A stretch of DNA of 64,000 nucleotides. It comes from Escherichia coli (lineage in GTDB: Bacteria; Pseudomonadota; Gammaproteobacteria; Enterobacterales; Enterobacteriaceae). The stretch is from assembly GCF_036507355.1 (NCBI RefSeq), contig NZ_AP027877.1. One strand, 5' to 3'. Positions 31,868 to 32,877 of this stretch are shown here, in pieces. A model generated the notes under the pieces. The model did no database searches and was not told where the DNA came from. It was given only the letters and a program-made list of their open reading frames with translations. Every line of letters starts with the position of its first letter. Position 1 is the stretch's first letter. Position numbers and translations under genes: made by a program.

Positions 31868-32282
31868 AAGAAAACATCCCCTGAGAGTTTAATTTTCGTC
31901 AAGATGCGTGGCGGACAATCCCCTGCCAGCGAAACGTTATCTTCCTGCTCCAGGTTTGCGACAATTTGCTGCGTCGCAAAAAAGCAAACGTTTAGCTCCG
32001 CGCATACAAAACGGGTGGTAAAAAAAGCAAACGATTATCCGGCGATCATAGCGGCTTTTTCAACCGAAGTTTGCTGCTTTTTTCTCTTTTATTGTCTTGA
32101 CGATGAAAAACCAGGCAATTGATGCGCAAACGTTATCGTCGATGCGCAAGATTGCAGCGTTATCGAGCCGTATACCGTTCTGGATTGCGATAAAAAATCG
32201 TCTGAGATGACAAAAATATTGCGGCTAAAAAGTATACTTTTGCACTGGCGAAGAAACGCCGGTGACATACAATTAAAGTATC

Positions 32283-32424
32283 AACACCAACCGGAACCTC
32301 CACCACGTGCTCGAATGAGGTGTGTTGACGTCGGGGGAAACCCTCCTGTGTACCAGCGGGATAGAGAGAAAGACAAAGACCTGAAAACAAACTAAAGCGC
32401 CCTTGTGGCGCTTTAGTTTTGTTC
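32283..32424 (+). ncRNA. sraL: candidate small RNA SraL (RyjA) convergent with soxR
   Basis: Position between ghxP and soxR; bidirectional terminator hairpin AAAGCGCCCTTGTGGCGCTTT at 32394-32414 followed by T-rich tract on + strand; 5' end not determinable from sequence. Confidence 0.35.
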
Positions 32425-32877
32425 ATCTTCCAGCAAGCGTGCGCCGGTACCTTCTTCTCCTAAGCGGTCGCCCGGGTTACGCAACGGGCAATCACTGCGC
32501 GAAAGGCAGCCACAACCAATACATCCGTCCAGTTCGTCACGCAGCGCCACTAAGGTATGAATGCGCCGATCTAATTCTTCTCGCCATTGCGAAGAAAGCT
32601 GCTTCCACTCTTTGGCGCTTAATGTATGCCCTTCGGGCAACACGCCAAACGCTTCACCAATGGTCGCCAGCGGAATGCCAATACGCTGAGCAATTTTGAT
32701 AATTGCGACATATCGCAACACATCACGTTTATATCGCCGCTGATTGCCGCTGTTACGGATACTGGTAATCAACCCTTTGCTTTCATAGAAATGCAGCGCC
32801 GATACCGCCACACCGCTGCGTTTCGCCACTTCGCCGGGGGTTAGCAGCGCTTTAATGCGGGGTAATTTCTTTTCCAT
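32413..32877 (-). CDS. soxR: redox-sensitive MerR-family regulator SoxR (2Fe-2S)
   Basis: 154 aa ORF with C-terminal [12 protein letters not shown] cluster. Confidence 0.9.

Follow-up and report, generated by a model that had tools for sequence, protein, structure and literature searches.

The small RNA SraL, also named RyjA, accumulates through RpoS in stationary phase and at high osmolarity, and it is controlled by PNPase and polyadenylation (PMC3753932). For Salmonella sraL, dependence on RpoS was documented together with a lacZ fusion and a more than 100-fold ChIP enrichment of RpoS at the promoter (PMC3753932). The RNA has been recovered with Hfq, and the E. coli and Salmonella orthologues are expressed as an RNA of ∼140 nt (PMC3753932; PMC2515195). 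Its 5′ part pairs just upstream of the Shine-Dalgarno sequence of tig and thereby represses tig, as proven by compensatory mutations (PMC3753932), and Salmonella SraL guards the rho leader against premature Rho-dependent termination (reviewed in PMC6582626 and PMC12360218). Through SraL, the stationary-phase sigma factor is tied both to protein folding, by way of trigger factor, and to Rho levels, a connection that has been published already. The neighboring gene ghxP (yjcD), which encodes a guanine/hypoxanthine transporter, is repressed through PurR (PMC3809563; PMC6892915) and is a member of the PurR-1 i-modulon (PMC6892915); in ChIP-chip, PurR bound a region designated 'ryjA/yjcD' (PMC3159470).

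Here we analyze the corresponding locus in a 64,000-nt stretch of E. coli DNA (contig NZ_AP027877.1), to which we refer as the window. The non-coding gap between ghxP and soxR measures 545 bp (31868-32412), close to the ∼540 bp given in a sequence-only reading of this DNA, which had proposed that the gap encodes a convergent SraL/RyjA-like sRNA. Each item named in that reading was located where it had been placed or within 1 nt of it. We assign 141 of the 545 bp to sraL, and the other ∼410 bp (31868-32279) serve on the opposite strand as the control region of ghxP, with the ghxP promoter, PurR operators (one published, others predicted) and a structured leader. The coordinates of all features are collected in Table 1.

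Table 1. Positions, strands and supporting details of the features in and around the ghxP-soxR gap of the window.
Feature	Position	Strand	Details
ghxP	30518-31867	-	Program-made ORF list
Conserved structured core of ghxP 5′ leader (candidate)	31904-32005	-	RNAalifold, 19 species
Outer helix GCGCGG/CCACGC	ghxP leader core	-	RNAalifold
Helix AGCUAAACGUUU/AACGUUU(C/A)GCU	ghxP leader core	-	Joins PurR-like box to downstream AACGUUU block
Inner hairpin GCGAC...GUCGC	ghxP leader core	-	RNAalifold
Second strong PurR-like box AGCTAAACGTTTGCTT, predicted	31982-31997	-	In ghxP leader, ∼+31 to +46; PWM 19.0 bits
Weak PurR-like box	32025-32040	-	11.5 bits; over ghxP -10
ghxP sigma-70 promoter, predicted	32034-32063	-	Consensus scan, 10/12
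ghxP -10 GATAAT	32039-32034	-	Overlaps weak PurR-like box
ghxP -35 TTGAAA	32063-32058	-	18-nt spacer to -10
PurR operator ACGATAACGTTTGCGC	32124-32139	-	∼100 bp upstream of predicted ghxP start; PWM 18.3 bits
88-aa ORF, judged spurious	32160-32426	-	ORF list; antisense to sraL
sraL promoter	32246-32276	+	Alignment of 43 distinct upstream sequences
-35-like TGGCGA of sraL	32246-32251	+	Weak
C at -14 of sraL	32266	+	Anchored upstream comparison
-10 TACAAT of sraL	32268-32273	+	16-nt spacer after TGGCGA
TAA discriminator motif of sraL	32274-32276	+	Directly after -10
sraL (ryjA) sRNA gene, 141 nt	32280-32420	+	Full-length Rfam RF01408; homologue of K-12 ryjA (b4459)
Strain-specific G->T at SraL nt 103, GACCGG -> GACCTG	32382	+	Column otherwise G
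Bidirectional intrinsic-terminator hairpin, sraL (+) and soxR (-), predicted	32389-32419	both	13-bp stem, 5-nt loop
soxR CDS	32413-32877	-	ORF list, RefSeq annotation; final 8 nt overlap sraL 3′ end

When the whole 64-kb window was scanned against Rfam, the RF01408 covariance model matched the plus strand over model positions 1-142 of 142 with 151.5 bits (gathering score 39, E = 3.4e-34). The proposed convergent sRNA is thus recovered as a full-length family member, and the statement that an sRNA is known at this position in E. coli is borne out by the K-12 MG1655 RefSeq entry, in which the ncRNA ryjA (b4459, 141 nt) lies at the homologous place, converges with soxR and overlaps it by the same 8 nt. 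An alignment with the K-12 sraL sequence had been suggested as a check; over 563 bp of the region 7 positions differ (99% identity), with a single difference inside the sRNA. The region is found in 5,420 of 5,426 complete E. coli genomes, and PGAP-annotated genomes, an O157 among them, carry no feature at the sraL position except the end of soxR. The plus-strand element is almost certainly sraL/ryjA, the trans-acting 141-nt sRNA, and sraL at its known locus is an already described and experimentally characterized family. Its transcription in the present strain would be expected from what is established in other strains. Elsewhere in the window, Rfam matches above threshold were obtained for SECIS_2, a bacterial selenocysteine insertion element (11912-11966, plus strand, 87.1 bits), and for naRNA4, a REP-derived nucleoid-associated RNA (14435-14505, minus strand, 75.2 bits).

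We aligned 43 distinct upstream sequences on the sraL start site. A TGGC[A/G]A motif occurs at -34 in 38 of them and a TAnAnT hexamer at -12 to -7 in 38, followed by TAA at -6 to -4 in 36, and a C stands at -14 in 34. The -35 of sraL agrees with the consensus at three of six positions. Sigma-S promoters typically carry a C at -13; the conserved C of the sraL promoter is at -14, not -13. The sequence-only reading had advised looking for a sigma-S type -10 about 140 nt before the terminator, and TACAAT with its TAA lies 141 nt upstream of the 3′ end of the gene. Judged by sequence, the promoter is one with sigma-S features, in that the -10 is followed by TAA and the -35 is degenerate. By analogy with its orthologues, RNA polymerase carrying RpoS (sigma-S) would read this promoter, and the RNA would then accumulate in stationary phase and under osmotic stress.

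At its other end, sraL meets the convergent soxR and shares 8 nt with the end of that gene, so that one palindromic hairpin can terminate both. The hairpin quoted earlier, AAAGCGCCCTTGTGGCGCTTT, corresponds to 32394-32414 and is the core of a longer inverted repeat with a perfect 13-bp stem (32389-32401 paired to 32407-32419) and a loop of 5 nt, which covers the soxR stop codon (32413-32415) together with the final sense codon. The hairpin over the stop codon had been described as strong, which holds on both strands: the folding energy is -20.5 kcal/mol on the plus strand (z -6.3) and -21.8 kcal/mol on the minus strand (z -5.3), and in each case 0 of 200 shuffles were as good. The T-tracts that had been reported on both strands are present. 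Behind the G+C core, each strand is T-rich, with TTTAGTTTTGTT on the plus strand and TTTAGTTTGTTTTC on the minus strand. A simple consensus scan calls only the plus strand terminator-like; the minus strand is passed over because the tail that follows the full 13-bp stem contains 4 T in 8 bases. On the plus strand, the sraL hairpin runs into UUUU, as in a rho-independent terminator with a 3′ U-run. Across 39 species the stem pairs hardly vary, and a single compensatory change was observed among them. The sraL transcript would accordingly be predicted to start at 32280 on the plus strand and to end at the 13-bp hairpin and U-run (32389-32420), and this single palindrome would act as the terminator for sraL as well as for the convergent soxR.

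To survey the family, an exact two-block sRNA pattern was searched in a collection with one genome per species, which yielded 43 species-representative loci, nearly all from Enterobacteriaceae. The genera include Escherichia, Salmonella, Citrobacter, Klebsiella, Raoultella, Enterobacter, Leclercia, Lelliottia, Trabulsiella and Pluralibacter. In 42 of the 43 loci, sraL is followed directly by soxR in convergent orientation, the SoxR protein in related loci shows 100% identity to E. coli SoxR, and ghxP is found upstream of sraL at every locus for which the available DNA extends far enough. We then placed the Rfam structure on an alignment of 39 distinct sRNA sequences and compared it with 500 shuffles and with controls in which the pairing partners were slid by 1-3 columns. 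The structure is 95.7% paired across the 39 sequences, and compensatory changes were observed at 8 pairs (29 cells), a level reached by none of the 500 shuffles; in the slid controls, pairing falls to 41-54%. The minimum free energy fold of the sRNA in the window likewise gives the Rfam helices, namely a 5′ stem around small hairpins, central hairpins and the terminator stem.

Two of the loci carry labels from outside this family. L022, from a metagenome-assembled genome labeled as a Bacillota bacterium (2.9-kb contig), has an Escherichia-type ghxP-sraL-soxR locus with an sRNA identical to that of E. whittamii, and L030, labeled Chryseobacterium sp. 18061, has a Citrobacter-type one. This suggests mis-binned or contaminated assemblies in both cases and not an extension of sraL beyond Enterobacteriaceae. 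A further observation concerns the layout of the locus: in most genera, the ghxP control region is separated from the sraL promoter by a gene for a glutathione S-transferase-like protein of ∼230 aa with Pfam GST_N/GST_C domains (2468-3160 of locus L032 in Klebsiella pneumoniae, and 30 other loci). This gene is absent from Escherichia, Trabulsiella and some Citrobacter, and a search for a remnant in the window, where the corresponding place is ∼32140-32245, returned none.

The conservation of this block could in principle be accounted for without a separate sRNA, if it consisted of the soxR terminator or 3′ UTR joined to distal regulatory DNA of ghxP. The hairpin fits soxR geometrically, since the stop codon lies within it and a U-rich tail follows it on the minus strand. 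A terminator, however, needs ∼35 nt, whereas 141 nt are conserved here together with an upstream promoter at fixed spacing, and the fold is that of the curated sRNA family RF01408. For the orthologous RNA, Northern blots, RpoS ChIP and Hfq co-immunoprecipitation have been published (PMC3753932; PMC2515195). We consider an explanation by terminator and ghxP control DNA extremely improbable. Nearly the same block is also crossed by the 88-aa ORF on the minus strand, and if that frame were a real coding gene, the conservation of the plus strand would be its by-product. An uninterrupted frame that starts with ATG is seen in the window, in K-12 and at three E. coli-like Escherichia loci (L020, L022 and L027). 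In E. albertii the frame is broken and the longest ATG ORF has 35 aa; it is likewise interrupted in a further Escherichia species (L009), in Salmonella, Klebsiella and Enterobacter and across most of the remaining genera, despite the high conservation of the DNA, and most of the 43 loci have no comparable ORF across the sRNA region. The tblastn matches change frame from segment to segment, and conservation tracks the RNA helices, with their compensatory changes, and not codons. The ORF has no Pfam match and is annotated neither in the curated K-12 genome nor in a PGAP-annotated O157 genome; its ATG falls within the last soxR codons, and the sole Shine-Dalgarno-like sequence, GGAAG, abuts the ATG directly at an improper spacing. 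There is hardly any chance that this is a gene. The sequence-only reading had held the ORF to be likely spurious, and the loss of the frame outside the E. coli-like Escherichia agrees with that; the ORF most likely arose by chance from the conserved RNA sequence.

With the plus-strand sRNA as the preferred reading, a further question is whether SraL, besides acting in trans, is also a cis-acting antisense RNA of soxR. In that case, the convergent transcription, together with SraL pairing to the 3′ end of the soxR mRNA, would modulate the termination or stability of soxR. The coding overlap of 8 nt, the wholly shared terminator hairpin and the convergence retained in 42 of the 43 loci would be in keeping with such a role. 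The overlap itself is not kept, as in many genera soxR ends 10-130 nt past the sRNA. Measured from the sraL start, the end of soxR lies at 135-273 nt in most loci and at 661 nt in one, so that the overlap is not a feature of the family, and no effect of SraL on soxR is reported in the literature searched. We regard a cis role on soxR as unlikely and retain the trans-acting sRNA as the function of the element.

Concerning the known targets, by analogy the 5′ part of SraL in this strain would pair with the tig leader and lower the synthesis of trigger factor, and SraL would pair with the rho leader and shield it against premature Rho-dependent termination. The 7 nt at positions -29 to -23 of K-12 tig are perfectly complementary to SraL nt 28-34 (GUGCUCG), a prediction in which accessibility is ignored; this is compatible with the published '7 + 3 bp' tig site in the 5′ part of SraL (PMC3753932). 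When duplexes of full-length SraL with the K-12 leaders of rho and tig were predicted, they ran over the whole molecules and were meaningless. We note that the single difference from K-12 within the sRNA, at nt 103, affects a column that is G in all 38 other species sequences as well as in K-12. Over 32340-32420, the window sequence recurs in none of 5,419 complete E. coli genomes, and the nt 103 change was not seen there. RNAalifold predicts a long-range CCGG/CCGG helix that is not part of the Rfam model and that loses one pair with U103. When duplexes of SraL with the K-12 rho and tig leaders were predicted in sliding windows of 22 nt, again ignoring accessibility, the candidate sites all lay away from nt 103, and the G and U alleles gave the same results. 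The change could be a private allele or a sequencing error. The 20 kb from 22000 to 42000 of the window reach a best identity of 98.9% among the 5,426 complete E. coli genomes, and the window therefore comes from a lineage or close relative that is unrepresented among them, for which private substitutions are expected. As a natural SraL allele altered at an otherwise invariant base, U103 offers a possible follow-up.

On the opposite strand, the region upstream of ghxP is conserved in blocks across genera. Both hexamers of the predicted ghxP promoter are conserved in nearly all of 22 aligned species, and from this promoter we place the start of transcription near 32028. PurR sites were scored with a position weight matrix built from 27 other published ChIP-supported sites, which themselves score 12.2-24.7 bits. 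The box upstream of the promoter is the motif published for the PurR ChIP-chip region 'ryjA/yjcD', is conserved across genera, and has the second highest score in the 64-kb window. The top score belongs to the predicted box in the ghxP leader, which is nearly invariant in 19-22 species. When the PurR palindrome was searched for as a plain consensus, allowing up to 3 mismatches, only the published box was returned, and not above chance.

The predicted ghxP leader is ∼160 nt long (∼32028 to 31868, from the predicted start) and contains a conserved core of ∼100 nt, for which RNAalifold gives a structure of several helices. Across 19 Enterobacteriaceae species, 11 pairs have changes on both sides, and on all five measures none of 500 shuffles was as high. 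The structure is 96.5% paired, compared with 36-52% in the slid controls and with 82.3% on the opposite strand; the difference between the strands is due to 97 G-U cells. One of the helices joins the leader box to the downstream AACGUUU block, and this block fits the RNA complement of the box better than it fits the PurR motif (4.7-8.1 bits), which favors an RNA constraint on it. Two copies of an operator-like palindrome can partly account for the same helix. Folded on its own, the leader sequence has unremarkable stability (z -0.23). Rfam models, those of riboswitches included, gave nothing credible on the ghxP strand at the gathering score or at E <= 1, and a literature search for a riboswitch or UTR element of ghxP/yjcD retrieved nothing relevant.

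We therefore treat the structured ghxP leader as a candidate and not as a finding. On comparative sequence data, it is possible, and we suggest this tentatively, that the core is an undescribed cis-regulatory RNA that overlaps a PurR-like operator and provides control after the start of transcription in addition to PurR. Through purine sensing, or by binding a protein or an sRNA, such an RNA could control the guanine/hypoxanthine transporter. If functional, the leader would place an RNA-level layer on the control of purine uptake in enteric bacteria. Two other ideas were considered for the leader. In E. coli, an ORF of 22 codons that begins with the ATG at 32005-32003 could be read as a leader peptide; in other genera the codon is AAG, CAG or CTG, and the leader peptide was rejected. 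GGA motifs at the leader junction and at the Shine-Dalgarno sequence recall CsrA sites, an idea only, as a link between ghxP and CsrA was not found in the literature searched.

Set beside purine and xanthine riboswitches, which we mention as context only, the ghxP leader is likewise a conserved multi-helix 5′ leader of a purine transporter gene; unlike them, it comes without an Rfam riboswitch match, a terminator or an obvious helix that sequesters the Shine-Dalgarno sequence. The closer comparison is with the PurR-repressed promoters of purine genes and transporters, whose known sites span a range that includes the 16-bp boxes of ghxP at 18-19 bits. In contrast to those promoters, ghxP has two strong boxes ∼140 bp apart, one upstream and one in the leader, and the leader box is overlapped by a covarying RNA structure, which is undescribed in the literature searched. 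Among small RNAs, SdsR (RyeB) resembles SraL as a conserved enteric sRNA with RpoS-dependent transcription (PMC3753932), whereas its sequence, locus and targets are unrelated, and the Rfam scan of the window gave no match to the SdsR family. The closest system is SraL/RyjA itself (RF01408, b4459 of E. coli and SraL of Salmonella): apart from a lone G->U at nt 103, the element described here is like the known SraL in sequence, length, fold, promoter, terminator, locus and orientation.
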